From Candidatus Thorarchaeota archaeon (GTDB lineage: Archaea; Asgardarchaeota; Thorarchaeia; Thorarchaeales; Thorarchaeaceae): DNA of 35,832 nucleotides. Both the position numbers and the translations under genes were made by a program. Where the stretch lies: assembly GCA_038893995.1 (NCBI GenBank), contig JAWAQK010000022.1:1-35832 (forward strand). Direction: 5' to 3'. Below, one piece after another: positions 2,285 through 35,674 of this stretch (its first letter is position 1; each line of letters starts with the position of its first letter). The notes under the pieces were generated by a model. It made no database searches. It saw only the letters and a list, made by a program, of their open reading frames with translations, and was not told the origin of the DNA.

Positions 2285-3292
2285 CTACCGCAGGCTGGGG
2301 ACAATTCTGTCAGCTATGGTCTTGACAGTTGCGATCACGTCCGTCCCAGGAACGGGAAACAGCACAGGGGTCGTGGCTCCTGCCTCCACTATCTCCTGTA
2401 TTCTCCTGGTGCATGCCTCCACATCCCCTACCACGCTGAGCTCTCGGACCTGTCTCTCCGTCAACAGGTCCGCCACACTACGGCCCTGTTCGTACGCGGC
2501 CCTGAATTCAAGAGTGTTCTGTTCAGTGACGCCAGCATGTGACATGAGTGGTCCTCCTGGCTGAGAATGTGGCAGGTAGAGACTCAGGAACTTCTTTGAC
2601 GTGTCGATGGCCCTATCTAGATCATCGTCTATCACCATTGGCAGGTAGGACACCATCTCAAAGTCGCCCAGGTCCCTCCCAGCCTTCTTGGCTCCCTCTC
2701 TGACCTGCTCCCATGCGAACCTCACGTACGAGGGCGTGTTCATGATGGACAGTATTGCTCCATCACCAATCTCTCCGGCCAGCCGGAGCCCATTCTTACC
2801 CTCGAAAGCCAGGTAGATCGGGACGCTTGTGCGGACTGGTCTGAATACCAGTTGGACATCCTTTGCCACAAAGAACTCGTCTTGATAGTTCACCTTCTCG
2901 CCGGTAATGATCCTCCGAACAAGCTCTACGCACGACCGTGTCCTCGAGAGAGGCTTTCCGACGTCAAACCCCATCTGAGACATCCAGTAGGGGACCCCCG
3001 ACCCAAGTCCGAACACTGCCCTCTTGTTCGAGAGTTCGTCAATCGTAGCGAACTCCATGGCCATTAGGGCCGGATGTCGTGAATATGGGTTCACTACGCC
3101 GAGTCCTATCCTTATCTTCTTGGTAGCATATGCCGCCGTGGCGAGGTAGGGTATTCCCCCCCGGAAGAAGTAGTCCTCCGCAAACCAGACCGATCCTATT
3201 CCCAGTTTCTCGGCAGTCACCGCAAGATCCACAGCCTCTCTGACCGGGTACACCCCTGTCATTGCGACCCCAAATTCTCTAAAGTGCGTCAA
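2285..3292 (-). CDS. LLM-class flavin/F420-dependent oxidoreductase (Mer-like)
   Basis: AEKLGIGSVWFAEDY, ATKKIRIGLGVVNPYSRHPA, IDELSNKRAVFGLGSG, LAGEIGDG. TTG 3292 lies 6 nt after GGAGGTG (the track starts at 3301). Confidence 0.9.
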   Translation of the reverse strand: MTHFREFGVAMTGVYPVREAVDLAVTAEKLGIGSVWFAEDYFFRGGIPYLATAAYATKKIRIGLGVVNPYSRHPALMAMEFATIDELSNKRAVFGLGSGVPYWMSQMGFDVGKPLSRTRSCVELVRRIITGEKVNYQDEFFVAKDVQLVFRPVRTSVPIYLAFEGKNGLRLAGEIGDGAILSIMNTPSYVRFAWEQVREGAKKAGRDLGDFEMVSYLPMVIDDDLDRAIDTSKKFLSLYLPHSQPGGPLMSHAGVTEQNTLEFRAAYEQGRSVADLLTERQVRELSVVGDVEACTRRIQEIVEAGATTPVLFPVPGTDVIATVKTIADRIVPSLR

Positions 3293-3351
3293 CCTGTACA
3301 CCTCCTACGGAAGAAAGATGGCTGGGGATGGTCCCTCGCGGGGCCTCTCCC

Positions 3352-8455: not shown

Positions 8456-10375
8456 TCATGATACAGGTTGCTTTCCTCTGCGAAGCAGCCTCAGCGCGTT
8501 TGCTGTCACGACTAGAGTCACCCCCATGTCTCCCACTCCAACGGCAATCCAGAGGCTGGATAGGCCCAATACTGCGAGCACGATCACCAAGGACTTGACA
8601 GTCAACGCCAGGATGACATTCTGCTTGACGATCGCCATAGTCCTCTTGGCCCTCATTATCGCAGAGACTACTCCACGCAGGTCGTTTCTCATGAGTGCTA
8701 CATCCGCGGTCTCGAGAGCTGCGTCACTCGAGGACGCGCCGACCGCGATTCCCACTGTTGCACTGGCCAAGGCCGGGGCATCGTTCACTCCGTCCCCCAC
8801 CATTGCTACTGTCTGATCTCTCGACAGCTCCCTCATCGCGGCCACCTTGTCCTCGGGCATCAGACCTGCCCTGAATCTGAGGCCGAGTTCTTGAGCGGCC
8901 CAAGCAGAGTTTGATACAGAGTCCCCGGTCAGCATGATCGAATCAATGTCCATATTCCGTAGCAGTCGGATTGTTTCCTTGGCCTCCTGCTTCAGAGAGT
9001 CGGCGAGCACTACTCGGCCCAGTTCACCCCTCTCGTCACCCACGATCAGGTCCACCAACGGTGTGTTGTCCTGGTCCGACGGACGACATGTGTGATCTGT
9101 TGGGTCATCGGTGCCCGCGCTAGTGATAGTGAATGTTTCGCCTCCGACCCGACCCCTCACCCCCACTCCTGGTTCGTATTCAAAGTCTGTGACGTCATCA
9201 ATTACCCTGAGGTTGCGTTGCTCGGCCTCTCTCACTATCGCCCTGGACACGGGGTGCTTCGACCTGGATGACAGAGCTGCAGCTTTCTGCAATAATGTTT
9301 GAACATTCTCGCCCCGCGATGAACAGACGTGTATGACCCTGAAATCGCCCGTTGTAAGGGTGCCCGTCTTGTCGAATGCAACGGTCTTGGCAGCAGCAAG
9401 GCTCTCGATGTGGCGTGCCCCCTTTATGAGCACACCTTCTCTTGCAGCCCCGGCGATTGATGACGCCATACTGACTGGCACAGAGATCACGAGCGCGCAG
9501 GGGCAGGCAGTCACAAGTAATGTCAGCCCACGATAGACTGACAGATACGGGTCTGTACCTACGATCAACATCGAAAGGGCGAGTAGAACTGATCCGGTCA
9601 CGACAAGAGGGGTATATACGTGGGAGAACCTGAGCACTGCAGACTCTACCTTTCCCCTACTCTTCCTGGCTGATTCTACAAGCTCAACTATTCTCGACAG
9701 GGTCGAGTCACTGTAGGTCGCAGTGGTCTCGATCTCCAGGTAACCATCAAGGTCTATCGTTCCTGCAAGGACCTTGTCTCCTACATTCTTCCTGACAGGT
9801 AAGGACTCACCAGTGATACTGGACTCGTCGACTGATGCGACACCAGATACTACTATTCCGTCTAGGCCTATGGTCTCCCCGGGTCTTACTACGAGCCGAC
9901 TCTTAATCGGGACCCGGTCTGGGGATAGCCGGACCTCTCCCTTGTGTGACAACACGGAGACCTCCCTATTACGTATGTTCGCCAACGATGTGACCTCACG
10001 TTCGACGGCAGAACCCGCATACTCCTCTAGCGCCTCTGCGACCGAGTACAGGACCATCACTGCAGCACCCTCTGCGGGAGCTCCTATAGTCACGGCCGCG
10101 AATGATGCAGCTGTCATGAGGAAGCTTATGTCGAGATGAAGGTGTAGGGCGCCTCTGATGCCCCTGGGGATGGTGTACCTACCCGCTACCAGTATCGAGG
10201 TCCCGTAGACGATCAGCGCCTGATCACTCAGGAGGGACAGCTCCAGGAGTACTCCCAAGAGCATCAGTACGAAACCTACGATGGCAACAGCGAATACTGA
10301 GCGTGGCTCTCTGACCTCAGCGCGAGATTCCTCCTCTGCGCAGTGCCGGCAATACTGCCCGTTGTGTTCGTCCAA
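8456..10375 (-). CDS. Heavy-metal-translocating P1B-type ATPase (Zn/Cd/Co-like)
   Basis: TGESLP, CPC in the membrane region, DKTGT, SKHP, GDGVNDAP, GDMG; short N-terminal CRHC. Confidence 0.93.
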   Translation of the reverse strand: MDEHNGQYCRHCAEEESRAEVREPRSVFAVAIVGFVLMLLGVLLELSLLSDQALIVYGTSILVAGRYTIPRGIRGALHLHLDISFLMTAASFAAVTIGAPAEGAAVMVLYSVAEALEEYAGSAVEREVTSLANIRNREVSVLSHKGEVRLSPDRVPIKSRLVVRPGETIGLDGIVVSGVASVDESSITGESLPVRKNVGDKVLAGTIDLDGYLEIETTATYSDSTLSRIVELVESARKSRGKVESAVLRFSHVYTPLVVTGSVLLALSMLIVGTDPYLSVYRGLTLLVTACPCALVISVPVSMASSIAGAAREGVLIKGARHIESLAAAKTVAFDKTGTLTTGDFRVIHVCSSRGENVQTLLQKAAALSSRSKHPVSRAIVREAEQRNLRVIDDVTDFEYEPGVGVRGRVGGETFTITSAGTDDPTDHTCRPSDQDNTPLVDLIVGDERGELGRVVLADSLKQEAKETIRLLRNMDIDSIMLTGDSVSNSAWAAQELGLRFRAGLMPEDKVAAMRELSRDQTVAMVGDGVNDAPALASATVGIAVGASSSDAALETADVALMRNDLRGVVSAIMRAKRTMAIVKQNVILALTVKSLVIVLAVLGLSSLWIAVGVGDMGVTLVVTANALRLLRRGKQPVS

Positions 10376-10504: not shown

Positions 10505-12286
10505 ATGCACGGTGATGGTCCCCTTACAGACGAGGAACGTAACGGCAGAGCACTGAATGCCATCTCAGAGCTCCTCGAGAGACTAGGGGATCCTGCCATG
10601 GTGTCAGATGAGAACCGTGTGATATATGTCAACGATGCGTTCGCCCAGATGGTCGGCTACTCGAAGGATGAGATACTTGGTTCTCAACTGACAGGCATTA
10701 TCGATGTCGCGACGTTGTATCAGTATCGGAATGCCATAGAGAACTCGAATGATCTTATCGACAGCCCAAAGAGATTTCGCATGAAACTGGTGACCAAGAA
10801 TGGAGGCCTTGTGATGGCAGATGTCACAAGGAAGGTCCTTGCCACTGGAGGTCGCATCTGTTTCCTGAGCACTCTTCGTGATATTACCCAGCAGGTCCAG
10901 CAGGAAGACGAACGGGAGAAAGAGCGACAGACTCTCAAGACCATGTTCGAGTCGTCTCCAGTTGCATACTTCATTCTCTCCCGAAATGGTATTGTTACAC
11001 AAGTCAATGACGCAGCGGCCAGGTTGCTGGGACACGAGAAGGAGAAGATACTCAGGAGTCAATTCACTACCTTCCTCTTCCGAGACGACAGGTCCAAGGA
11101 TGATGCTGAGATCGTGAGGGCAGCGCTGGGTGGCTCCGTTCTTCGTGATGTGGAGATGAGGCTTCGAAACCGGCAGGGAGAGATGGTATGGGTGCTCATG
11201 ACTTCGAGCCCCCTGATTGTGAACGGGGAATTGATCGGGACGGCTGTCATGGTCAACGATGTGACTCGAAGAAAGATGGCAGAACAGAGGGCGCAGGAGG
11301 AGAACGAGAGATCCAGCCTGTATCTGGAGATACTGACACACGATCTCAATAACCTCAACCACACCATCCTGGTGTCGATGGGGCTACTCGAAGAGCTGCT
11401 GACGCCGCAGGGAAAGATACGAGAGCTGATCGACGAGACAGAGTGGGTCATCCGTAGAGCCACGAGGACTATAGAGAGCCTCAAGATGATACGTACACTG
11501 GCCGACTCCACGCCCCCTGTTGTCCCAATAGCGATAGAGGACTCTGTGAATCGTGCAATTGACATGGTGAGGGAAGACTTTCCGAACAGGTCGGTTGAGT
11601 TCGAGGTCCATCTGACCGAGTGTCCGCCGATCGCCGGGAACGAACACGTTGATACTGCCCTTTTCAATGTCATCCACAATGCGGTCATGTTCTGCAACCG
11701 AGATGTCGCTCATGTCGCAGTCCGCAGCAGGGTCTCAGAGGACAATCGAGCAGTAGATATCATGGTGGAGGACAATGGCCCTGGCATTCCGGATACGATG
11801 AAGGAGCTCATCTTCAAGCGTAGCGGTCACCCAGATAGCCAGAGTGTGGGCAGAGGACTCAGTCTGACCCTCGTCAACTACATCATGAAGGGACTTGGGG
11901 GTTCTGTCTGGGCAGAGGACAGAGTGGCTGGTAACAGCGAGATGGGCGCGAGACTAGTGCTGAGGTTCCCCGTCTGGGTCGAGAGAGCTGTCCCTAGGTG
12001 TGGGAGACCATCCTGCATCATCTTCTATAAGTCTGAGCACTGCGTCTTCTGTCCCTCTTCAATGGCAGCTCTGAAGGAGGCAATGGCGACACTGAACCTC
12101 CCGACAGAACTGATAGTGGAAGTTGATGTTGACGATCCGTCTCAGGGCATCCGACGGGATGAGATTCCTGTCGTACCTGCAGTCAGGCTATGTGATTCCG
12201 TGCTCACAGGGATAATTGACTACGATACTTTTCTCTCGGCGCTCATGAATCTCTCGGGAAAGGAATGCCTACCCCTGATTCGCTAG
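10505..12286 (+). CDS. PAS-PAS sensor histidine kinase with C-terminal thioredoxin-like (CxxC) domain
   Basis: Two PAS repeats; H-box LTHDLNN, N-box NVIHNA, EDNGPGI, GRGLSL; tail IIFYKSEHCVFCP...VPAVRL...LTGI. Confidence 0.88.
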   Translation: MHGDGPLTDEERNGRALNAISELLERLGDPAMVSDENRVIYVNDAFAQMVGYSKDEILGSQLTGIIDVATLYQYRNAIENSNDLIDSPKRFRMKLVTKNGGLVMADVTRKVLATGGRICFLSTLRDITQQVQQEDEREKERQTLKTMFESSPVAYFILSRNGIVTQVNDAAARLLGHEKEKILRSQFTTFLFRDDRSKDDAEIVRAALGGSVLRDVEMRLRNRQGEMVWVLMTSSPLIVNGELIGTAVMVNDVTRRKMAEQRAQEENERSSLYLEILTHDLNNLNHTILVSMGLLEELLTPQGKIRELIDETEWVIRRATRTIESLKMIRTLADSTPPVVPIAIEDSVNRAIDMVREDFPNRSVEFEVHLTECPPIAGNEHVDTALFNVIHNAVMFCNRDVAHVAVRSRVSEDNRAVDIMVEDNGPGIPDTMKELIFKRSGHPDSQSVGRGLSLTLVNYIMKGLGGSVWAEDRVAGNSEMGARLVLRFPVWVERAVPRCGRPSCIIFYKSEHCVFCPSSMAALKEAMATLNLPTELIVEVDVDDPSQGIRRDEIPVVPAVRLCDSVLTGIIDYDTFLSALMNLSGKECLPLIR

Positions 12287-12300
12287 ACGATAGTGCCATT

Positions 12301-12329
12301 CAAAAACAGTGGGCGGGACAGAGTCCCGC
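12301..12329 (-). terminator. Hairpin plus T-tract between the convergent kinase and dsrE genes
   Basis: GCGGGAC-AGA-GTCCCGC (12313-12329), followed on the minus strand by TTTTTG. Confidence 0.5.
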
Positions 12330-12337
12330 GCATCTAC

Positions 12338-12700
12338 TCAGAAGAAGATGGCCTTGTCGTGCTTGAGGATGTCGTCGATCATCTTCGCGGCACCGGCGAT
12401 CTCGATCCTCGGGTCACGAAGGTCTTCCTTGTCTAGGCCCCTGAACTGAGCCGAGTTCGAGCAGACTTCTATCTTCCCTCCCGCATCCAGGAACATCTGA
12501 ATGAGCTCTGTGAGCGGAGGAAATCCCGGTGCCTTGATCTTCTCGGCGACTCCCTTCTTCATAAGCCAGACAGCATCCATCATCAGGAATATGTTTGCAG
12601 TGACGTCCTGCGCCTGTGCAGTTGTGCCAGTAACAAACGGGCCATAGCACCTCTCAGCAGCCTCAGGACCCCACGAAGAAACGATGTAGAGTGTGGGCAT
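12338..12700 (-). CDS. DsrE/DsrF-like sulfur-relay family protein
   Basis: IFLMMDAV, GGKIEVCSNSAQFRG (conserved Cys position), ends in 'IFF'; GAGGTGA RBS before ATG 12700. Confidence 0.88.
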   Translation of the reverse strand: MPTLYIVSSWGPEAAERCYGPFVTGTTAQAQDVTANIFLMMDAVWLMKKGVAEKIKAPGFPPLTELIQMFLDAGGKIEVCSNSAQFRGLDKEDLRDPRIEIAGAAKMIDDILKHDKAIFF

Positions 12701-12710
12701 CTTGATCACC

Positions 12711-13106
12711 TCATATTGCAGACAGTGGTACGTAGTAGAGCACGAGTCCTAGTGTGAGGAACACGGCCATCAGTAGATTCGTCATGTGCGAGCTGTGAAT
12801 TGGACCGCCCTGCATCGTCTTCATCAGTATTGGGACTATCTGACCAAACTCCATGAGTAGGGCCAGAGTGTACAGCGCAAAGTCGAGGATCAGAAGAATA
12901 TGAAGCAAGTCCATCATAGTCCCCGGAGACGTTGACACAAAGACTCCGAACAGAAGGGTCACCAGCGACGACAGCATCGCGATCATCAACACAAGTACCT
13001 GCACCATCAGGTACATTCCCATCCTCCTGGCTAGCATGAAGCCACTGAACATTGTGGCCACAGACAAAGCAAACAGGAGAAGCAACAGTAACTGCATCAG
13101 TGCCAA
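12711..13106 (-). CDS. Hypothetical ~4-TM membrane protein, probably co-transcribed with dsrE
   Basis: 131 aa, almost entirely hydrophobic helices; 10 nt upstream of dsrE. Confidence 0.7.
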   Translation of the reverse strand: MALMQLLLLLLFALSVATMFSGFMLARRMGMYLMVQVLVLMIAMLSSLVTLLFGVFVSTSPGTMMDLLHILLILDFALYTLALLMEFGQIVPILMKTMQGGPIHSSHMTNLLMAVFLTLGLVLYYVPLSAI

Positions 13107-13146
13107 TTCCGGTCACCTTGTTTTCATACTGGTATAGATCTCTTCA

Positions 13147-13219
13147 ATAAACTTATCGAAAGATATACAGAATCTCAGATTTCTGTCGATAACCGACGCC
13201 ACTATGTGAGAAAGTTTAT
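13147..13219. promoter_or_regulatory. Back-to-back BRE/TATA promoters with a central dyad operator
   Basis: AAGTTTAT on the minus strand (13147-13154) and plus strand (13212-13219). Arms TTATCGAAAGATAT (13153-13166) and ATTTCTGTCGATAA (13179-13192) are 12/14 complementary. Confidence 0.6.
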
Positions 13220-13263
13220 GAATGACGACAGTCACACTTGACCCCAGCTAACAGGTGATTCTC

Positions 13264-13500
13264 ATGGCAGACGAATTCGCAAAGGAGTTTGACGCATCTG
13301 GTCTGAGATGTCCAATGCCAGTCCTACAGACAAAGAAGCACATCCAGGATATCAAGGTGGGAGAGATACTCAAGGTGATCGCGACAGACCCGGGGACCAA
13401 GAAGGACTTCCCTGCCTGGGCCGAACGCACGGGGAACGAGATTGTCAGCATGAGAGAAGAGGCAGGAAAGATAATCTGGTTGATCCGCCGAAAGGCATGA
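13264..13500 (+). CDS. tusA: Sulfurtransferase TusA family protein
   Basis: DASGLRCPMPV (CPxP), GEILKVIATDPG..KDFPAW; AGGTGA RBS. Confidence 0.93.
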   Translation: MADEFAKEFDASGLRCPMPVLQTKKHIQDIKVGEILKVIATDPGTKKDFPAWAERTGNEIVSMREEAGKIIWLIRRKA

Positions 13501-13642: not shown

Positions 13643-14299
13643 CTAGTGTCTCAGCGCCATCATTTCTCTGCTTGAGAAGAGCTCCCTGAGGATTGCTCCC
13701 AATACCATGCAGTACTTCTTGGCCTCCGAGATGTCGGACCTATTGTCGCCGACAGATGCGTACACATTGTCCACTTCCTGTGTCATTGACTCCCACCTAT
13801 CGCAGTCAGCCCGACCATAGAGCTGGAAATAGTCGCTTGTGGCCTGGTTCACAGCCTGCTCAACCGCCGACTCGATCCGTTCAGCAAGCGAAGTGTGCTT
13901 GGTGATAGGAAACACCGTGAAGTACGCGGGCTGTATCTGACTCTTACCCCCGCTCATGCGCGGCAAGACCTCGAACCGGCAGAAGTGATGTACGCCGCAG
14001 GGGGTCAACAGCCTGAGTGCAAAGGCATACTTGGGCGAGTTGATGTTTCCGATAGTTTCGACTATGGTGAAGAACTTGGCCGCATAGTAGGGCGCAAGAG
14101 GGTCGTCGAGGAGGCATCCGCTTCTGGTGATGATGTTGCTGAGGCCACACTGGGGACCGAGGTCTTGTGGCCGTGCGTCTGACCAGGCAAAGAACACACG
14201 GAGCCCCACTGGCGCCTGGCCCGTGTCTCCGATCACGACAGCTGTTCCATCTCTCAACTTACGATAAACTGTGTCGGCGTAGTTCATAAGTCCTCGCAA
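13643..14299 (-). CDS. Hypothetical protein
   Basis: 218-aa ORF with globular composition and no recognised motif; ATG 14287 is an alternative start. Confidence 0.65.
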   Translation of the reverse strand: MRGLMNYADTVYRKLRDGTAVVIGDTGQAPVGLRVFFAWSDARPQDLGPQCGLSNIITRSGCLLDDPLAPYYAAKFFTIVETIGNINSPKYAFALRLLTPCGVHHFCRFEVLPRMSGGKSQIQPAYFTVFPITKHTSLAERIESAVEQAVNQATSDYFQLYGRADCDRWESMTQEVDNVYASVGDNRSDISEAKKYCMVLGAILRELFSSREMMALRH

Positions 14300-14777
14300 T
14301 ACGTTTCATTCACTCGACTCCGTCAGGTTGATTCTCAGAAACGGAACTTCGGCATTCCTGGCACTGCACAAGACTCGCAAGATACACCGAACACATTAGG
14401 ATGGTACTTGATGCCCGAGTCTTCACAGGTGACTGGACGAGATGCCGATATCGTCCTCTGAAGTGTTCCAGTCCAGGGTAGACTGGTCTGATTCATCAGG
14501 GGTCATGCCAGCTCGAAGCCTACAGGTCACATCGAACAGGAGTGCACATGCCGTGACCCCGCATTACGCCGAGATGCTACAGAACGTGTCACATTGTGAC
14601 CATGACGCCAGCGGTCAAGGACTGAGTCCTCGGCTGCACTGTGGCTCGGTCCTCGGTGAGGATACTTCCCCTGCAATCCGTCAATCGTCGAACCAAATTT
14701 CATTTCAATCATAAACAATATATCCTCGATGGAACATGAACAGCCCAACAAGGCGACGTGGCCTTGGAGGGAAAACA

Positions 14778-15620
14778 ATGAGTAGCGAAATGAACATGAA
14801 GACATTGGTGCTTCATCTCTCGGCTATTGCACTGGTGATCTTCTACCTGATGTACATGCCCTACACAATACTATCACCAGTCGTAGACGAGTGGGGTGTC
14901 CTCCATGTCTGGCTCTACTACTTCACGCTGGTCCTAGGGATCCTATTCCCGCTGTTCTATGCGAAGGGAGATGAGGACACAGCGTGGTACATTCTCGGGC
15001 TGGCCATCATCCTGAATTCGGTGGTCTGGCTGCTTGCTACACCACCCCTGACGACGAACCCACTGTTGTCAGCCCTGATGACGCTACTGCTGGGAGTGTT
15101 CTTCTTCATCACGCCCCTAGTGCTGAAGAAGGTGTCCCAGGCAGACATGGTCAAGAACATCCTACACATCATCAAGGGCCTCTTGATCCTCGCCGCTGCG
15201 GGGTTCTATGCCAACTGGGTTCTTGATGACTTCATTGGCACCACTAGCTACAACCACATCATGCCCCAGTTCCTATTCACGGGCGGAGCACTGACAGTGG
15301 TGTTCGGCTTTGTGCTGTTTGTCTACGGTCTGTTCAACATTTTCCGCATGAAATCAGGAGGCAAGGCCAGCGAGTGGTTCGGGAAGATCTCAGAGTTGTT
15401 CTACGTACTGATGGTCATAGTATTCCTGATAGGAGTGACCATGAATGTCTCGACCCACCTGGTGGCGGCTGCATTGGTTGCTCCCTGGCTAGGCGCGACG
15501 TATGCCACCTCAATCGGCTTCTTCGGGAGCCTGATAGTGCTGGCTGGTAGCAACCTGGTCACATTCCTCCTGATTGTGCTCTACGTCTACGGCATGAATA
15601 AGATCGTAGAGAAGCACTAA
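14778..15620 (+). CDS. Hypothetical polytopic membrane protein (~8 TM)
   Basis: Repeated hydrophobic helices; GGAGG RBS before ATG 14778; followed by a terminator. Confidence 0.8.
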   Translation: MSSEMNMKTLVLHLSAIALVIFYLMYMPYTILSPVVDEWGVLHVWLYYFTLVLGILFPLFYAKGDEDTAWYILGLAIILNSVVWLLATPPLTTNPLLSALMTLLLGVFFFITPLVLKKVSQADMVKNILHIIKGLLILAAAGFYANWVLDDFIGTTSYNHIMPQFLFTGGALTVVFGFVLFVYGLFNIFRMKSGGKASEWFGKISELFYVLMVIVFLIGVTMNVSTHLVAAALVAPWLGATYATSIGFFGSLIVLAGSNLVTFLLIVLYVYGMNKIVEKH

Positions 15621-15752: not shown

Positions 15753-16151
15753 TTGTCTGTTCTACAGGAAATCGCACGCCAACTGGACTCCGTAGGTATA
15801 AAGTACCAATACGACCAACAGAACAACTTCATCGGAATGAGATGGCAGACAGACCACTTCGACGATCTGAGGGTCCGCATAGTCACTAATCGTGACGAGT
15901 CGTGGCTCTACATTGTGGCTCCGTTCGGCAATTTCTACAAGGTCGATAGTGACAAGCAGTTTCAGTTTGCCATTGACATGCTGAAGGAGTCATGGCGGGC
16001 CAACGGCGTGAAGATGGCACTTGACGACGACAACGATATCATCGTCATTGCAGAGACCAATGACAGGGAGCTGACTGGGGAAGAGCTCAGGCAGCTCGTT
16101 GGAAACGTGGTACATGCCTGCGACAAGCTGTGGGACATCTACCCCGCATAG
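15753..16151 (+). CDS. YbjN / type III chaperone-fold domain protein
   Basis: 132 aa, acidic; LDSVGIKY, GVKMALDDDNDIIV and a C-terminal amphipathic helix; GGAGGTG RBS with TTG start. Confidence 0.65.
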   Translation: MSVLQEIARQLDSVGIKYQYDQQNNFIGMRWQTDHFDDLRVRIVTNRDESWLYIVAPFGNFYKVDSDKQFQFAIDMLKESWRANGVKMALDDDNDIIVIAETNDRELTGEELRQLVGNVVHACDKLWDIYPA

Positions 16152-25226: not shown

Positions 25227-25976
25227 ATGACAATAGACATTCACACGCATCTGGGAAAAGACCGCATGAGCATAACGTCCATCGACCGTTCGGACCTTCC
25301 ATTTCTGACGGACCAGCTGATTGCGGCAATGGACCAACACGGTGTCGATGTGGCAGTGGTCACTCCGTCTGAACCATACGTGGACTCCGAAGTATGCATC
25401 GAGGCGGCCGAGATGTCTCCCGATCGTCTTCTCTGGTCGTGCAGCATGATTCCTCGCCCTATTGACCGGGCCCGCACTCAGCTGCGCTCCTTCGTGGACA
25501 GAGGCTGCGCAGGACTTGTCATGGACCAAGAGACTTTTCATCCGTCAGATCCTGCTGCAGACGCGCTTGCGTTCAGCGCGTCGATGCATGGGCTGCCCAT
25601 CTTCCTACACACATATGAGTTGACACCCGAGGGCGCCTCCTTCATAGACAGGATATCGGCAGCATGTCCTGAGCTACAGATAGTCGTCGCTCACATGGGA
25701 GGCATTCTTGGGGTCTACAGGTTGATGCCGTACCTTGGCCGGGGCAATATATGGCTGGACATATCCTCGACGCTTGCGAGATTGGTCGAGCCTCCAATGA
25801 GGATGTTCCTGGACGTGCTTGCTGAGACGCATGGCTTCTCCAAGCTGGTATTTGGTTCGGAGCACCACAACGAGTACGGTAATGTGCGGGGCTCTCTCAA
25901 CCTGATGAAGCTGGACATCGAGACACTTCGTCTGGTCACCGACGAAAACCCGCGACGAATACTTCGACTCAACTAG
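25227..25976 (+). CDS. Amidohydrolase family protein (Amidohydro_2-like)
   Basis: IDIHTH, MDQHGVD, LPIFLHT, VVAHMGG, NIWLDIS, LVFGSE. Confidence 0.85.
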   Translation: MTIDIHTHLGKDRMSITSIDRSDLPFLTDQLIAAMDQHGVDVAVVTPSEPYVDSEVCIEAAEMSPDRLLWSCSMIPRPIDRARTQLRSFVDRGCAGLVMDQETFHPSDPAADALAFSASMHGLPIFLHTYELTPEGASFIDRISAACPELQIVVAHMGGILGVYRLMPYLGRGNIWLDISSTLARLVEPPMRMFLDVLAETHGFSKLVFGSEHHNEYGNVRGSLNLMKLDIETLRLVTDENPRRILRLN

Positions 25977-26299
25977 GTCCTTGTCAGCAGGTAGGAATGT
26001 ATTACATTCTCCAGTTCCTCATGTGTAGGAATGCCTGTTAGGACAGCAGAACCAACTCTGATCGCTGGTATCGCTCGTATGTCGTTGGTCCCTGCCCTGC
26101 CAGCAGGCCAATCTATCTGCTGGACAACAATGTTCACATAGACGTCCTGATCCCGTAGCCTCTCCGCTGACTGTCTGACGACCTCCAGCGCCTGCCCACA
26201 GAATGCGCACTTCTCGTCTGTGTATACCGTCACTGTAAGGTCCTGTCGATAGCGTCCACCGTCCGCTAGCAATCTCCGTTCTCTCCATGAATCCAGCAC
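25973..26299 (-). CDS. Thioredoxin-family protein (archaeal MJ0307-like)
   Basis: VYTDEKCAFCGQA, cis-Pro motif IRAIPAI, LTGIPTHEEL. Confidence 0.82.
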   Translation of the reverse strand: MLDSWRERRLLADGGRYRQDLTVTVYTDEKCAFCGQALEVVRQSAERLRDQDVYVNIVVQQIDWPAGRAGTNDIRAIPAIRVGSAVLTGIPTHEELENVIHSYLLTRT

Positions 26300-30564: not shown

Positions 30565-33096
30565 GTGACGGTAAGGCCACTCATGGTACTCAGCGAGAGA
30601 CACCTGGACGTAGCAAAACGACTGACCAAGTCCAGAGTAGTCGCTGATGCGGTCATAGTCAACTCATTTGCCCGTGCAAAGAAGGTCTACAATGGACAAG
30701 CTCCTGATGTCATATTGTCAGAGTGCCGAATCGGTAGAACCTCCTGCCTCTCTCTTGCCCGTTCGATCCAGCGGACTCAGAAACATCCGGTACTTGTTGT
30801 GATTGCAGGTCAATCTGACCTAGACGTGGCTGCGCAGGCCCTTCAATACACGACCGGACACATAGTCCTTGACAGGGACGACCCCGTACACCTCTACCGA
30901 AGGATCGAGAAGATACTGTCCGAGATAGACGCCAGGCCGCACATCGGCACAGGTGGTATGTGGCAACAGTGTGGGTCGATGCTCGATGCGATCAAGGACG
31001 GTGTTCACCTTGTAGATCGCAACCTGAGGATAGTCTTTGTGAACGAGTCTCTCCTCCTGTGGATACAGCTCTTCGGGATTGCTCCCGACATAGTTGGCAG
31101 ACATATCAGAGATGCGTTTCCGTTCTTGAGCGAGAGTGTCCTGAGCCGGTATCAGAGTGTCTTCGAGTCGGGAACCCCTAATTCAGACATCGACCACATG
31201 GTCCTGGACGGACGGCCAGTGTGGACAGAGGTCCGCAGATTCCCCGTATGGGACGGTGATCGGGTGTCGTATGTGATCACGGTGCTACGAGACATCACCG
31301 AACAGAAAGAGACTGAGCAGAAACTCGCCGAGAGCGAGAGGGTCCATAGGACGATTGTTCGGTCGATTGGTGAAACGGTACTTGTCGTAGATCCGCAGAA
31401 CAGGGTCACAGAGTATCATGGTACTGAGATCGAGCATCCCCTGCTGAGGCATGCGCATGTATTGGGCAAGAGTATCGGTGAAATCCTTCCTCAGGACTTC
31501 ACGACAAGATTCCTGGATCGCGTCAAGCAGGTGCGTGCGACAGGTACAGCAGCAAGACTGGATTTCACACTGCCCTCTGACAATGCGACCGAGTGGTTCT
31601 CGGCTGTCATAACTCCTCATGAGAGCACGGACGACATAGTCGTAGTGATCAGAAACATCACAGACAAGAAAGCCGTAGAGGAACTGTTCCGGTCATCTGA
31701 GGCGGTATACCATGCTGTCTTCGACGGGACGGTTGAGGGCATGCTCATCTGCGAACACACGAGCATGAAGATTCTATCTGCAAACCGTAGTATCTGCAAT
31801 ATGTTTGGGTATGCACCCGACGAGTTTCTGCAGATGACACTCGATAGGCTGTTTGTCAATATGGTCGCCGCGCAGGTACTCCAGCAACTGAGAGAGGCAT
31901 CTCGTGGACAACCTAAGAGATTGACCACTGTCCCATGCATTCGCCGTGATGGCACACGCTTCGTTGCTGATATTTCGTGCACTGATGTGAACGTCGGTGA
32001 CAAGACATTAGACGTAGTATTCGTGAGCGACGTGACTGACCGTGAACTTCATCAGGCCGCGATTCGAAGGTCCGAGGAGTGGCTCCGCAGCATAATTCAG
32101 GACTCCCCAGTTGCGATTCGTGTGTTCGATGCGGACGGAAGACTTGTCACGGCCAATCACGCGTGTCTGGATCTGATGGGTGTGTCGTCAGTATCCGACC
32201 TACGACCGCTCAGTATCTTTGATGACCCATCTGTTCCGAAGGACGTGATAGAGAAGGTCAACGCCGGCGAAAGGGTCAGAAGTGTGAGTACCCTGGACTT
32301 CGACCTGGTACGTAAGCTTGGTCTATACCCCACTTATCGTACCGACAAGATATACCTTGACGTGTCGTATTCCCCTCTGGTATACGAAGACCGTGTCCAG
32401 GGGTACATCGTCCAGGCCAACGACATAACTCTGCTGAAGAGACAGAGAGACGAGCTCAGCGAGTTTGCCCACAGTATGGCGCACGACATTCGGTCAAGCC
32501 TACATACGATCCTGGTCGCATCAGAGCTCGCAAGACAGGAATGTGACTCGAAGCACATCGACAATGTAGAGGCTACTGCCAGACAGGTCATTGAACTTGT
32601 GTCAACGTCCGTCGAGCTGGCTGATGCGGGCCTGGTTGTTGGGACCCCGGAGAAGGTAGATCTGCGGGCCATCGTCGAGGAGGTGGCTGCGCGGGTAGTG
32701 CCAGGTCATATTGCACTCAACATCGGTCCAATGCCCCTAATAGAATGTGATAGGGCCAGGCTGGTCAGGGTGGTCGAGAACATATTGAGAAACGCTGTCG
32801 AACACGGAAAACCAACGAAGATAGACGTTCGCTTCATCAGTCATGCAGATCATGACGAGTTCATCATCTTGAACGATGGCGTTCGAATTCCCCATGCTCA
32901 TCGAGGTCGTCTCTTTGAGAGGGGATACTCCACAAAACCACATGGTGGGCTTGGCCTCTTCATTGTCAAGAAGATTGTCGAGGCGCATGGCTGGATGATA
33001 TCGCTCAAGGACTCCGAAGAGACTGCCTTCTCCATCATTATGCCCAAACGCTCCAAAGTGTATGGTAGGCATTCCGAGGACTGGTCTCTCTCCTGA
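30565..33096 (+). CDS. Pseudo-receiver, 4x PAS sensor histidine kinase
   Basis: N-terminal REC-like PDVILSE...AAQAL; four PAS repeats; AHDIRS, NILRNAVEHG, NDG, GGLGLFIVKK. Confidence 0.9.
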   Translation: MTVRPLMVLSERHLDVAKRLTKSRVVADAVIVNSFARAKKVYNGQAPDVILSECRIGRTSCLSLARSIQRTQKHPVLVVIAGQSDLDVAAQALQYTTGHIVLDRDDPVHLYRRIEKILSEIDARPHIGTGGMWQQCGSMLDAIKDGVHLVDRNLRIVFVNESLLLWIQLFGIAPDIVGRHIRDAFPFLSESVLSRYQSVFESGTPNSDIDHMVLDGRPVWTEVRRFPVWDGDRVSYVITVLRDITEQKETEQKLAESERVHRTIVRSIGETVLVVDPQNRVTEYHGTEIEHPLLRHAHVLGKSIGEILPQDFTTRFLDRVKQVRATGTAARLDFTLPSDNATEWFSAVITPHESTDDIVVVIRNITDKKAVEELFRSSEAVYHAVFDGTVEGMLICEHTSMKILSANRSICNMFGYAPDEFLQMTLDRLFVNMVAAQVLQQLREASRGQPKRLTTVPCIRRDGTRFVADISCTDVNVGDKTLDVVFVSDVTDRELHQAAIRRSEEWLRSIIQDSPVAIRVFDADGRLVTANHACLDLMGVSSVSDLRPLSIFDDPSVPKDVIEKVNAGERVRSVSTLDFDLVRKLGLYPTYRTDKIYLDVSYSPLVYEDRVQGYIVQANDITLLKRQRDELSEFAHSMAHDIRSSLHTILVASELARQECDSKHIDNVEATARQVIELVSTSVELADAGLVVGTPEKVDLRAIVEEVAARVVPGHIALNIGPMPLIECDRARLVRVVENILRNAVEHGKPTKIDVRFISHADHDEFIILNDGVRIPHAHRGRLFERGYSTKPHGGLGLFIVKKIVEAHGWMISLKDSEETAFSIIMPKRSKVYGRHSEDWSLS

Positions 33097-33201: not shown

Positions 33202-35010
33202 TCATGTCTGGGTAGCGTTCACATTTACCGCAGGGAATCTGAGAACAACCTTGAGTCCACGCTCGGGCTTGTTTCGGATCCGGTCCTCGACTCTGAGTGT
33301 ACCCCCATATTTGTCTACGAGCGTGTTCACGATCATCAGACCGAGTCCCTTAGTCTTATGGTTCTTGAATACACTCTTCTTCTCCTCGTCACTGAGGCCG
33401 GGTCCGTTGTCCGCTACTGATATCTCCACCATGTCACTCTGAACTCTCTCAGATATCCAGACTGTTGGATTTCTCGACCTGTTATGTTTGAGTGCGTTCT
33501 CGAGAAGATTCCAGAACAACTGGCCCACTGCGCCATCAGCCATGATCATTGCAGGCCGCTCGATCTTCAACACAGTCTTGACCCTGTAGAGCTTTGCCAA
33601 CGTCTTCACAGCGTTGTCCAGTTCTGAAACAATGTCGAAGGGTTTCAGTGGTTCCGAACGTGACTGCTCAAGTTCGCGCACCCTTCGTATTATCTGCAGA
33701 CATTTCTCAGTGGCTGAACTTATGTAGTCACAGGAAGACCTGACCTGATCGGGGGTTGGACTGATACCAACCATCTCTATGCTGTTGGATATCAGCTGGA
33801 GCTGATTGCCAATGTCGTGAACCAGCAGATTGAGAAGCAGTCTTGCCTCTTCTTCCGCTCTCCTTAGTCCTGATATGTCTGAGACCACTGCAAATGAGCC
33901 GACGTAGTTCTTGTGTCTATCGAGTAGTGGTGCTGCGCTTAGCACCACTGGGATGAGACGTCCTGTCTTGTGAATAAGATGTGACTCGTATCTCTCCGTC
34001 AGACCGCGCATGCGAGCGACCTTCTTCTCCTCAAATACATCTTTCGTGATACCGTGGAAGAGATCCCAGTCGGCCTTCCCGATCAGTTCCTCCTTCCTCT
34101 CGTACCCCGCCATCCTTGCGAGGGCATCGTTAGCGTACACGATTCTCCCTGTGTCGTCGTCTATTGCCAGACCATCTGTCATTGTTTCAACAAGGGATCT
34201 GAACCTGTACTCACTCTCGACTAGCGCTTCGCGGCTCTTGACCACATCCGTGATGTCGATCAGCTGTGCGACGGTCTTGACCTCGCCAGTCCGCGTTCTG
34301 GTCACGGCACTGGCTATCTGAACATCCATCACTTCTCCGTTCTTCCGGACTATCTTGAACTCGTAGATAGGAGGGACTGGCTCGCCCTTCTGACGTTGGA
34401 TGTACCTGCTCTCGACAATCTTGACCCAGTCCGGATGAACATATAGTCGGAAGTCGGTCCCCAGTATCTCGTCCCTTGTTCGACCCAACATCTCGCAGAG
34501 TCTGTCATTCACGTATTCGAACTTGTAGTCCGTCCCCACGACAAGTGTACCGGCTCTAGAGTGAGTGACTGCGAACTTGAGCAGATCAATGACATCAGAC
34601 TCTCTCGAGAGTCTACGCTCCCTCATTGTCATGTCGAACGCTATGGCCGCATATCCACAGAGTTCACCATCGCGAGTGATCCTGAAGGCAGTCACCTCAA
34701 TTGGGACTCTCTGACCACCCTCTGACAGTATCTCAACTGAGATCGAGCGGATCTCGGTCCCTGGTAGTATCCTCTCTATCCCAGCTCTCACCAGTGCTGG
34801 ATACTCGCGGGCCAGGAGTTTGTCGACCAGGGGTCTCTCTCTCAGGATAGATTCGTTCGTTCCTAACAACCTCAGACCGGCCCGGTTTGCATAGAACAGT
34901 CTCAGGTCCATGTCAAACTCGAAGATGGGTATCTGAGAGCATTCAGCGAAGGCCCGCAGTATTCCCTCTTCTATGTCTGTGGGGTACTCTTCATTGCAGG
35001 TCACGTACAC
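33202..35010 (-). CDS. 3x PAS sensor histidine kinase
   Basis: PAS repeats; LVHDIGNQLQ, NLLENALKH, DNGPG, GLGLMIV. GTG 35010 follows GGAGG (the track extends to 35055). Confidence 0.9.
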   Translation of the reverse strand: MYVTCNEEYPTDIEEGILRAFAECSQIPIFEFDMDLRLFYANRAGLRLLGTNESILRERPLVDKLLAREYPALVRAGIERILPGTEIRSISVEILSEGGQRVPIEVTAFRITRDGELCGYAAIAFDMTMRERRLSRESDVIDLLKFAVTHSRAGTLVVGTDYKFEYVNDRLCEMLGRTRDEILGTDFRLYVHPDWVKIVESRYIQRQKGEPVPPIYEFKIVRKNGEVMDVQIASAVTRTRTGEVKTVAQLIDITDVVKSREALVESEYRFRSLVETMTDGLAIDDDTGRIVYANDALARMAGYERKEELIGKADWDLFHGITKDVFEEKKVARMRGLTERYESHLIHKTGRLIPVVLSAAPLLDRHKNYVGSFAVVSDISGLRRAEEEARLLLNLLVHDIGNQLQLISNSIEMVGISPTPDQVRSSCDYISSATEKCLQIIRRVRELEQSRSEPLKPFDIVSELDNAVKTLAKLYRVKTVLKIERPAMIMADGAVGQLFWNLLENALKHNRSRNPTVWISERVQSDMVEISVADNGPGLSDEEKKSVFKNHKTKGLGLMIVNTLVDKYGGTLRVEDRIRNKPERGLKVVLRFPAVNVNATQT

Positions 35011-35017
35011 GGGGGCC

Positions 35018-35035
35018 TCCAGATGCGCATCTGGA
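35018..35035. promoter_or_regulatory. Perfect 18-bp palindrome TCCAGATGCGCATCTGGA overlapping the kinase RBS
   Basis: Exactly self-reverse-complementary; overlaps the minus-strand GGAGG at 35016-35020. Confidence 0.45.
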
Positions 35036-35674
35036 CACGCAATCCATCCCCACAATCCCCCTATTTAGCTTTGCAGAATGGACAGGAGACACTGACACTG
35101 AACCACTGACGCTCTTCAGCATGGTCTGGAACGGGCCCACAGCCTGACCTGTAATCTGCATGCTCTGATGCCTCTCTCTTCTGACAGTGCACTCAGAAGT
35201 GATTGTCGACTGTAGACCCTACTACGTCGCAGGGCTCACGAGCCAGAGACCAATGCGGAAGGATGACTCTCCAGATTCGGAATCTCGGGGCTGGCAGTCC
35301 CACCATGACGAGGAGCGACTCGTGTGGTCGCTCATGAGGGTATTGCTGGGGTGACCCAGGTCGTATCTCCAGAGACTTGAGACTGGATCGTGGCACCACG
35401 GGGATTGGTCTGGGATCTTAGGTCGGGCCTAGGGGCGGCTCCGGACTGTTCCAACGAGTGAGGAAACCACCATGCCAAGGCATGAAAAGCCGGTTCCTTC
35501 TACTTGTGCTCATTCAGATGCCCGGGATAGATATTCAGCGGAGAAAGATAGAAATGGTACGATATCGTGAGAGTTCGCGCTGCTCTGCAGTGGTAAATGT
35601 CCAGCGATGGAAGCGCAGAGCCGATTGAGGGTGCTATGGATAATGAGATTAGAGTCTACTAGCCTTGCAGTCAT

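Follow-up and report, generated by a model that had tools for sequence, protein, structure and literature searches.

A Thorarchaeota sensor histidine kinase with a lineage-specific, cysteine-rich thioredoxin-fold tail as a candidate thiol-based regulatory module

We analyzed a 35,832-nt stretch of a Candidatus Thorarchaeota archaeon genome (positions 1 to 35,832 of contig JAWAQK010000022.1, assembly GCA_038893995.1; hereafter the window). At 10505..12286 on the plus strand, an open reading frame (ORF) encodes a soluble sensor histidine kinase of 593 aa which, from Pfam and NCBIfam matches and an AlphaFold model, has the order PAS-PAS-DHp-CA, where DHp is the dimerization and histidine phosphotransfer domain and CA the catalytic ATP-binding domain, followed by a C-terminal thioredoxin-like tail. 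We consider it on balance probable that this protein is an orphan kinase whose lineage-specific, cysteine-rich thioredoxin-fold tail acts as a thiol-based regulatory module, with the signal left unspecified. A sequence-only reading of the window had proposed that a CxxC module in the tail gates the kinase by its thiol or persulfide state, in conjunction with neighboring tusA and dsrE genes; its description of the tail stands up well, and its link to the sulfur carriers considerably less so.

The tail occupies residues 499-593 (11999..12283, plus strand), as delimited by profile search, AlphaFold, structure search and alignments. The strings that had first been read as thioredoxin-like, IIFYKSEHCVFCP (residues 505-517), VPAVRL (557-562) and LTGI (567-570), are all present within about 100 residues beyond the HATPase_c match, a region of the kinase in which neither Pfam nor NCBIfam gives a significant match. 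Taken alone, the last 96 residues match Pfam Thioredoxin_3 below threshold (E 0.088, 13.3 bits vs a cut-off of 24.8), yet the searches and model described next place the resemblance well outside what chance would give. An exhaustive HMMER search of 1.84 billion representative proteins returned 59 relatives of the tail; about a dozen of those at or above E 2.6e-10 are kinases of ~450-590 aa that carry it at their C terminus, and most of the non-kinase relatives are free proteins of about 110 aa. When a profile of 44 relatives was compared with the PDB, the top matches were MTH895 (1nho, 6.9e-7) and MJ0307 (1fo5, 1.2e-5); searched individually, 25 of the 44 weakly matched Glrx-like and 19 weakly matched Glutaredoxin, all at E 1e-4 or weaker.

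An AlphaFold2 model of the tail built on the family alignment has a predicted local distance difference test score (pLDDT) of 87.9 and the order beta1-alpha1-beta2-beta3-beta4-alpha3, assigned by DSSP as E19-23, H30-43, E51-55, E73-76, E79-82 and H87-98 in tail numbering, with helix 2 degenerate and reduced to a short turn. Helix 30-43 has C513 and C516 (tail positions 27 and 30) at its N-terminal end, and strand 73-76 follows P558 (tail position 72), the predicted cis-Pro position. The best Foldseek matches listed from the PDB are thioredoxin-fold proteins or thioredoxin-fusion constructs, and the same holds for the best 50 rows of a Foldseek-independent VIA-align search of 48,161 chains (Z 7.6-9.8). 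Because profile matches, the AlphaFold model, Foldseek and VIA-align all agree, we regard the predicted thioredoxin fold of the tail as confirmed, in a minimal version like that of glutaredoxin and NrdH, which bears out the assignment previously made by eye.

The tail contains an active-site-like CxxC, C513-V-F-C516 (12041..12052, plus strand), which is preceded by H512 and falls at the N terminus of helix alpha1 in the model, together with four accessory cysteines, C499, C504, C563 and C588. All six cysteines are invariant among 26 orthologous tails that are 34-45% identical to that of the window, as are F507, Y508, S510, D543, P545, P558 and G569. Collecting tails more broadly revealed two classes with almost no intermediates: a six-cysteine class of 40 non-redundant fused and 32 free-standing sequences, and a CxxC-only class of 17 fused sequences. 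The CxxC is invariant throughout these 40, 17 and 32 sequences, so that the expectation of its retention in orthologs is borne out in every fused copy examined (26 orthologs and 17 members of the second class). The count of exactly six cysteines in residues 498-593 was likewise correct, but the sequence-only reading did not remark that the four outside the CxxC behave as a separate, all-or-none unit. Across the collected tails, C499, C504, C563 and C588 are retained or lost en bloc, and because they are kept or lost together we treat them as one unit apart from the CxxC; this pattern suggests a single separate site that may hold Zn, an Fe-S cluster or disulfides. In addition, both fused classes retain S510, H512, P518 and D543-D544-P545, whereas the free-standing family does not conserve these residues, and this restriction to fused copies suggests that the active-site face of the tail has co-adapted to kinase attachment.

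The fused CxxC-only sequences belong to a second kinase lineage (for example L082:6214-7944 and L080:7282-8958), which was not found in the window's own genome (91% complete). In the five relatives where both kinases share a contig they lie 17-34 kb apart, and in 5/10 relatives a 145-aa gene with a TrmO_N domain follows the CxxC-only kinase on the same strand. We considered this second class as a functional clue and set it aside, as its neighbors (TrmO_N, EutA, nitroreductase and radical SAM genes) are uninformative. The window's genome also encodes four free-standing thioredoxin-like paralogs, all on the minus strand (window 25973-26299, L002:1342-1698, L004:1321-1707 and L005:1459-1830); the L002 paralog has all six tail cysteines plus a C-E-C-G-C insert, and the other three are CxxC-only. 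These free-standing paralogs adjoin unrelated genes.

In a set of 60 related genomes, tail homologs occur in 36/36 members of the same family, and the kinase-fused form in 32 of these. The four family genomes in which the fused form was not found are G009 (97% complete), G024 (85%), G029 (74%) and G036 (74%). A profile search of 301 genomes of the phylum detected the module at E 1e-12 or better in 74/76 genomes of this Thorarchaeota family and, by the same search and threshold, in 0/224 genomes from 29 other families, which indicates that the tail is a lineage-specific domain of one family, as judged from homolog detection. In G009, the most complete of the four, searches found neither the fused kinase nor orthologs of DsrE and the ZntA-type ATPase, and its congener G023 has all three; this is suggestive, but a single case.

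The full-length AlphaFold model of the kinase (mean pLDDT 82.7, predicted template modeling score 0.47) begins with a helix at residues 9-26, contains no transmembrane (TM) segment and hence describes a cytoplasmic protein. PAS domain 1 covers residues about 31-126 (10595..10882, plus strand), identified by Pfam PAS families in two stretches and by the strands and helices of the model, and PAS domain 2 covers residues about 154-252 (10964..11260, plus strand), supported by the model and by a PAS_9 match at residues 152-254 (2e-26). The DHp domain (residues 254-334; 11264..11506, plus strand) is a two-helix hairpin (helices 254-299 and 304-334 in the model) with the phospho-acceptor His279 in T-H-D-L-N-N; it has no Pfam HisKA match at E 0.1 or better, and for this reason we describe it as divergent. 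The catalytic domain (residues 340-490; 11522..11974, plus strand) carries N, G1, F and G2 boxes and a HATPase_c match at residues 381-489 (PF02518, 2.4e-13, 50.9 bits vs a cut-off of 26.4), with a disordered ATP lid at residues 441-448; a linker of pLDDT about 66 (residues 491-504) then leads to the tail, which spans residues 505-583 in this model.

Across 20 full-length orthologs, T278-H279-D280 are invariant and N283 nearly so, placed in the middle of helix 254-299, and N392, D423, G427, K433, F437, R439 and G449-L452 are invariant, with G425 conserved as well. Since orthologs show no variation in T278-H279-D280 or in these residues of the N, G1, F and G2 boxes, such kinases should be active, and the protein is probably a complete, active orphan sensor kinase as predicted from its conserved core. 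Public records name these kinases simply 'PAS domain S-box protein'. Two other architectures were considered and rejected: a hybrid kinase with a C-terminal receiver is ruled out, as the protein has no Response_reg match and its C-terminal domain is a thioredoxin fold, and a LOV-type PAS domain, raised by an NCBIfam YtvA match to PAS domain 1, fails on inspection for absence of the flavin-binding Cys motif. The C-terminal placement of the tail is unusual, as had been pointed out, with no receiver domain detected in the kinase by Pfam.

The statement that the window contains no response regulator is essentially right, its sole receiver-like signal being sub-threshold (24.5 bits vs a cut-off of 30.2). 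That signal comes from the N terminus of another histidine kinase (30565-33096, plus strand), and neither this kinase nor a third at 33202-35055 (minus strand) has a tail after HATPase_c. Elsewhere in the genome, five receiver domains score above the cut-off, on contigs C17 and C75, and no receiver gene was found near the kinase in the six genomes checked (this one and five relatives).

We propose that a cysteine-rich domain of thioredoxin/glutaredoxin fold was acquired directly after the catalytic domain, joined by a linker of ~10-14 residues; in the full-length model the linker is short, with the last strand of the catalytic domain ending at residue 490 and the first tail cysteine at residue 499. 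The CxxC would serve as a thiol switch, either through dithiol/disulfide exchange or by binding a thiophilic ligand (sulfane sulfur or a soft metal), and its state would alter how the tail packs on the adjacent catalytic or DHp domains. This packing could in turn tune the autokinase or phosphatase activity that the kinase directs at a single-domain response regulator encoded elsewhere. The four accessory cysteines would sit at the pole opposite the CxxC, where we favor a Zn(Cys)4 staple over an Fe-S site or disulfides, and such a staple would tie the linker and the C terminus to strands 1 and 3. Given standard thioredoxin-fold topology, C504, before beta1, and C563, after its antiparallel neighbor beta3, should be cross-strand neighbors, and C499 and C588 would lie on the adjoining N- and C-terminal segments. 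Taking fold topology together with the all-or-none phyletic pattern, clustering of the four around Zn may be the most economical reading.

Several points weigh against this proposal. Both the contact between tail and kinase and the clustering of the accessory cysteines are putative, and the linker pLDDT of ~66 fits a domain that is tethered but mobile. Because the C-[LVIF]-F-C dipeptide is atypical of known redoxins, redox activity of the tail is presumptive, and since KaiB and the N-terminal domain of SasA are similar to it (Z 8.4-8.6), a thioredoxin fold does not by itself show function. The tail could also be an output or docking module instead of an input. As for what the tail might respond to, the candidates are general redox state, sulfane sulfur via TusA/DsrE, and a soft metal, and genomic context points faintly, and to a comparable degree, to the last two. 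A bolder version, in which the tail would be a kinase input domain of a new class, located behind the catalytic domain, its six-cysteine module directly reading a thiophilic signal in the cytoplasm, either sulfane sulfur handed on by TusA/DsrE or the soft metal exported by the neighboring pump and its four-cysteine site adding a second sensor based on Zn release or Fe-S, is offered as a tentative extension of low probability.

The local gene layout was described correctly by the sequence-only reading, as ORFs and Pfam show: the kinase converges on dsrE and a four-TM gene, which are divergent from tusA. The DsrE-family sulfur-carrier gene lies at 12338-12709 on the minus strand (PF02635, 6.4e-16, 59 bits, with its Cys in E-V-C-S-N-S-A), the four-TM DUF5400 membrane protein immediately upstream of it at 12711-13106, also on the minus strand (PF17379, 6.5e-8), and the TusA sulfur carrier at 13255-13500 on the plus strand (PF01206, 1.1e-23, 83.3 bits), with its CPxP Cys motif in G-L-R-C-P-M-P; the NCBIfam TusA equivalog model is matched below threshold (1.1e-16, 60.4 bits vs a cut-off of 78). 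DsrE orthologs are 64-82% identical in 31 relatives, and DUF5400 travels with DsrE and TusA. This arrangement raises the possibility that the tail is a sensor of persulfide or sulfane sulfur that the adjacent TusA/DsrE relay supplies or equilibrates with, and that the kinase regulates sulfur trafficking, an explanation that is plausible by thiol chemistry and consistent with the canonical cysteines present in both carriers. We examined it by comparing the positions of fused tails, DsrE orthologs and ATPase orthologs across genomes and by inspecting 20 neighborhoods of 6.4-16 kb.

In 16/32 genomes and 9/16 genera, no more than 1.5 kb separates the DsrE-DUF5400-TusA cassette from the 3′ end of the kinase gene, even though kinase identity is just 27-40%; in 10 of the 16 genomes the two are directly adjacent, and in 6 a luciferase-like oxidoreductase gene stands between them. 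This LLM-class gene was seen between kinase and dsrE at L049, L051, L052, L053 and L054 (genera g9, g8, g2 and g12), and the inserted oxidoreductases are 22-26% identical to the product of window 2285-3301. The absence of a DsrE ortholog from G009, which also lacks the fused kinase, favors the sulfur connection as well. In the other genera, however, the cassette is found at a distance of 3.7-100 kb or on a different contig, with 23-100 kb or different contigs recorded for the seven genera in which it sits elsewhere, and at the three of these loci that were inspected the kinase retains its remaining neighbors; synteny of the fusion with tusA/dsrE thus holds for half of the genomes and fails in these genera, and the intervening oxidoreductase interrupts it in four genera. 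Moreover, the ATPase, the kinase, the cassette and then the genes at 15753, 16228, 17121, 19332 and 20043 form a conserved block, with the genes at 15753, 16228 and 19332 following the cassette in the same order; because the whole region is conserved in this way, common descent accounts for most of the adjacency, and related genomes do not count as independent samples of it.

Convergence of the kinase and dsrE further implies that the two are not co-transcribed, and their 51-bp spacer contains a 6-bp GC-rich hairpin at 12313-12329 (GCGGGA, a 5-nt loop, TCCCGC) beside which a T5 run lies on the minus strand. No motif was common to the ATPase-kinase and DUF5400-TusA spacers (14 and 16 loci, respectively). 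An ACAGAA-N8-TTCTGT dyad in the window's DUF5400-tusA spacer (13147-13219) occurs in 1/16 orthologous spacers, that of this genome only, and TGTAAC or GTTACA appears at a similar position in 7/16, within the range of shuffled controls. The CxxC-only kinases and the free-standing paralogs are also not beside sulfur-relay genes. With synteny half kept, the genes convergent, a general syntenic block and no shared operator, the functional coupling to TusA/DsrE that had been put forward does not follow from these comparisons; the tie of the kinase to the relay appears weakly supported, and we judge this explanation unlikely.

The other candidate input comes from the opposite side of the kinase, where a ZntA-type (P1B-2) heavy-metal ATPase is encoded head-to-head with it across a 129-bp spacer (8456..10375, minus strand; TIGR01512, 444.9 bits vs a cut-off of 313.5). 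The ATPase has a CPC motif in A-C-P-C-A-L-V-I-S and a short N-terminal C-R-H-C, with no Pfam HMA domain. It is head-to-head with the kinase in 20/28 genomes and 13/16 genera, six of which lack DsrE adjacency, and is the kinase's most persistent neighbor, steadier than the cassette. The tail might accordingly be a cytoplasmic sensor of a soft metal (Zn, Cd or Cu) through which the kinase controls the divergent efflux ATPase; six invariant cysteines together with H512 and D543/D544 are typical metal ligands, and in G009 the kinase and the ATPase ortholog are missing together. Against this, of the genomes without an ATPase ortholog (the three of genus g11, and G025), G010, G033 and G025 still keep the kinase, each genome has several free-standing copies of the six-cysteine module that lie in no metal-related setting, and the CxxC-only class has no ATPase neighbor. 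The caveat of block synteny holds here too, and archaeal metal efflux genes are usually under one-component repressors. We consider metal sensing by the tail unlikely, slightly more so than the sulfur-relay explanation.

A third explanation, in which the tail is not a sensory input but a protein-protein docking or adaptor domain comparable to the KaiB-like SasA domain, or else a disulfide reductase that serves as catalytic output, draws on the N-terminal domain of SasA and KaiB being among the structural matches (Z 8.6 and 8.4), on a distant free-standing paralog beside two KaiC-type ATPases, on a free-standing six-cysteine family whose existence suggests that the module can function independently, and on the merely moderate confidence of the linker; yet in VIA-align dozens of genuine thioredoxins equal or exceed these scores, KaiB and SasA domains lack the CxxC, and no KaiC gene was found near the kinase in the 20 loci inspected, and because the CxxC is invariant in 57/57 fused sequences and its surrounding residues are conserved in fused copies only, as expected from co-adaptation with the kinase, such a role is also unlikely. 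A specific KaiB-like or SasA-type clock-output reading was not favored, since the domain is C-terminal with an invariant CxxC, none of the 20 neighborhoods has a KaiC and 1t4z and 4kun match no better than many thioredoxins. The locus of the distant paralog (L005:3-2951, on contig C1 of the window's own genome) has a glutaredoxin-like CxxC protein directly downstream of two KaiC-type ATPase genes; this protein has a weak, sub-threshold KaiB match (E 0.0056), and Roadblock/LC7 and Ras-family small GTPase genes adjoin, which raises the possibility of a KaiB/KaiC-like module next to Asgard 'eukaryotic signature' genes.

Compared with known systems, the putative thiol-responsive tail combines familiar elements in an unfamiliar arrangement. 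SasA of cyanobacteria likewise joins a thioredoxin-fold module to a HisKA-type kinase, and its N-terminal domain (1t4z) matches the tail model at Z 8.6; unlike the Thorarchaeota tail, which is C-terminal with an invariant CxxC, four further cysteines and no linked KaiC, the SasA domain is N-terminal, lacks a CxxC and binds KaiC. MTH895 (1nho) and MJ0307 (1fo5), small archaeal glutaredoxin-like thioredoxins, resemble the tail in their minimal fold, in a CxxC located at helix 1 and in a Pro that precedes strand 3, but are free 85-aa redoxins with CPYC-type motifs, whereas the tail has C-[LVIF]-F-C after a His and four extra invariant cysteines, its helix 2 is degenerate, and it is attached to a kinase and reaches no Pfam threshold. 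The zinc-finger thioredoxin Trx2 (7d6l and 2ppt) resembles the tail in having extra cysteines beyond the active site, with matches (Z 9.5 and 8.5) that include its N-terminal extension; it differs in having a separate Zn-binding N-terminal finger with two CxxC motifs, whereas the four cysteines of the tail are spread out (C-x4-C ahead of strand 1, a single Cys following strand 3 and another following the last helix) and would bind metal only by supposition from their pattern.

In RegB/PrrB, ArcB, SrrB and the archaeal MsmS, kinase activity is set by the thiol/disulfide state of the protein's own cysteines, which is the logic that we propose for the Thorarchaeota kinase. These kinases differ from it in using single cysteines or Cys pairs located in DHp, PAS, GAF or catalytic domains, and to our knowledge none has a dedicated thioredoxin-fold domain after the catalytic domain. 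Among these nearest analogs, none places a dedicated thioredoxin fold bearing a CxxC behind the catalytic domain. A census of archaeal two-component systems mentions no such kinase-thioredoxin fusion (PMC5847659), and we found no paper in the literature that describes one. With regard to the cassette, dsrE3A-dsrE2B-tusA of Metallosphaera cuprina (PMC4175335; PMC11094781) is similar in pairing a TusA with a CPxP Cys and a Cys-bearing DsrE-family protein in a small cassette, and in the window cassette the DUF5400 membrane protein holds the middle position. We saw no sHdr or Dsr genes beside the window's TusA/DsrE cassette.

Should the tail gate the kinase, it would be the first dedicated thioredoxin-fold sensor after a catalytic domain and a compact module for engineering redox-responsive kinases, and if it further proved to be a sulfur or metal input domain, Thorarchaeota would possess a two-component pathway devoted to thiol stress from sulfur or metals; were it merely a structural appendage, it would be a modest addition to lineage-specific archaeal kinase architectures. 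Signal transduction in Asgard archaea is almost wholly uncharacterized, and most of their kinases are orphans without known inputs. In a lineage inhabiting sulfidic sediments, the fusion provides a defined, conserved candidate for an input based on thiols, and the tail belongs to an unannotated family of six-cysteine thioredoxin-like proteins, some free and others fused to kinases, which escapes curated models.

Finally, two ORFs of the window lie between tusA and the gene at 15753: 13643-14299 (minus strand), which has no family match, and 14736-15620 (plus strand), which encodes a multi-TM protein. Neither had a match in the 20 related loci, seven of which have only 0.15-1.1 kb between tusA and the homolog of the 15753 gene, and the segment 13643-15620 of the window looks like a local insertion.

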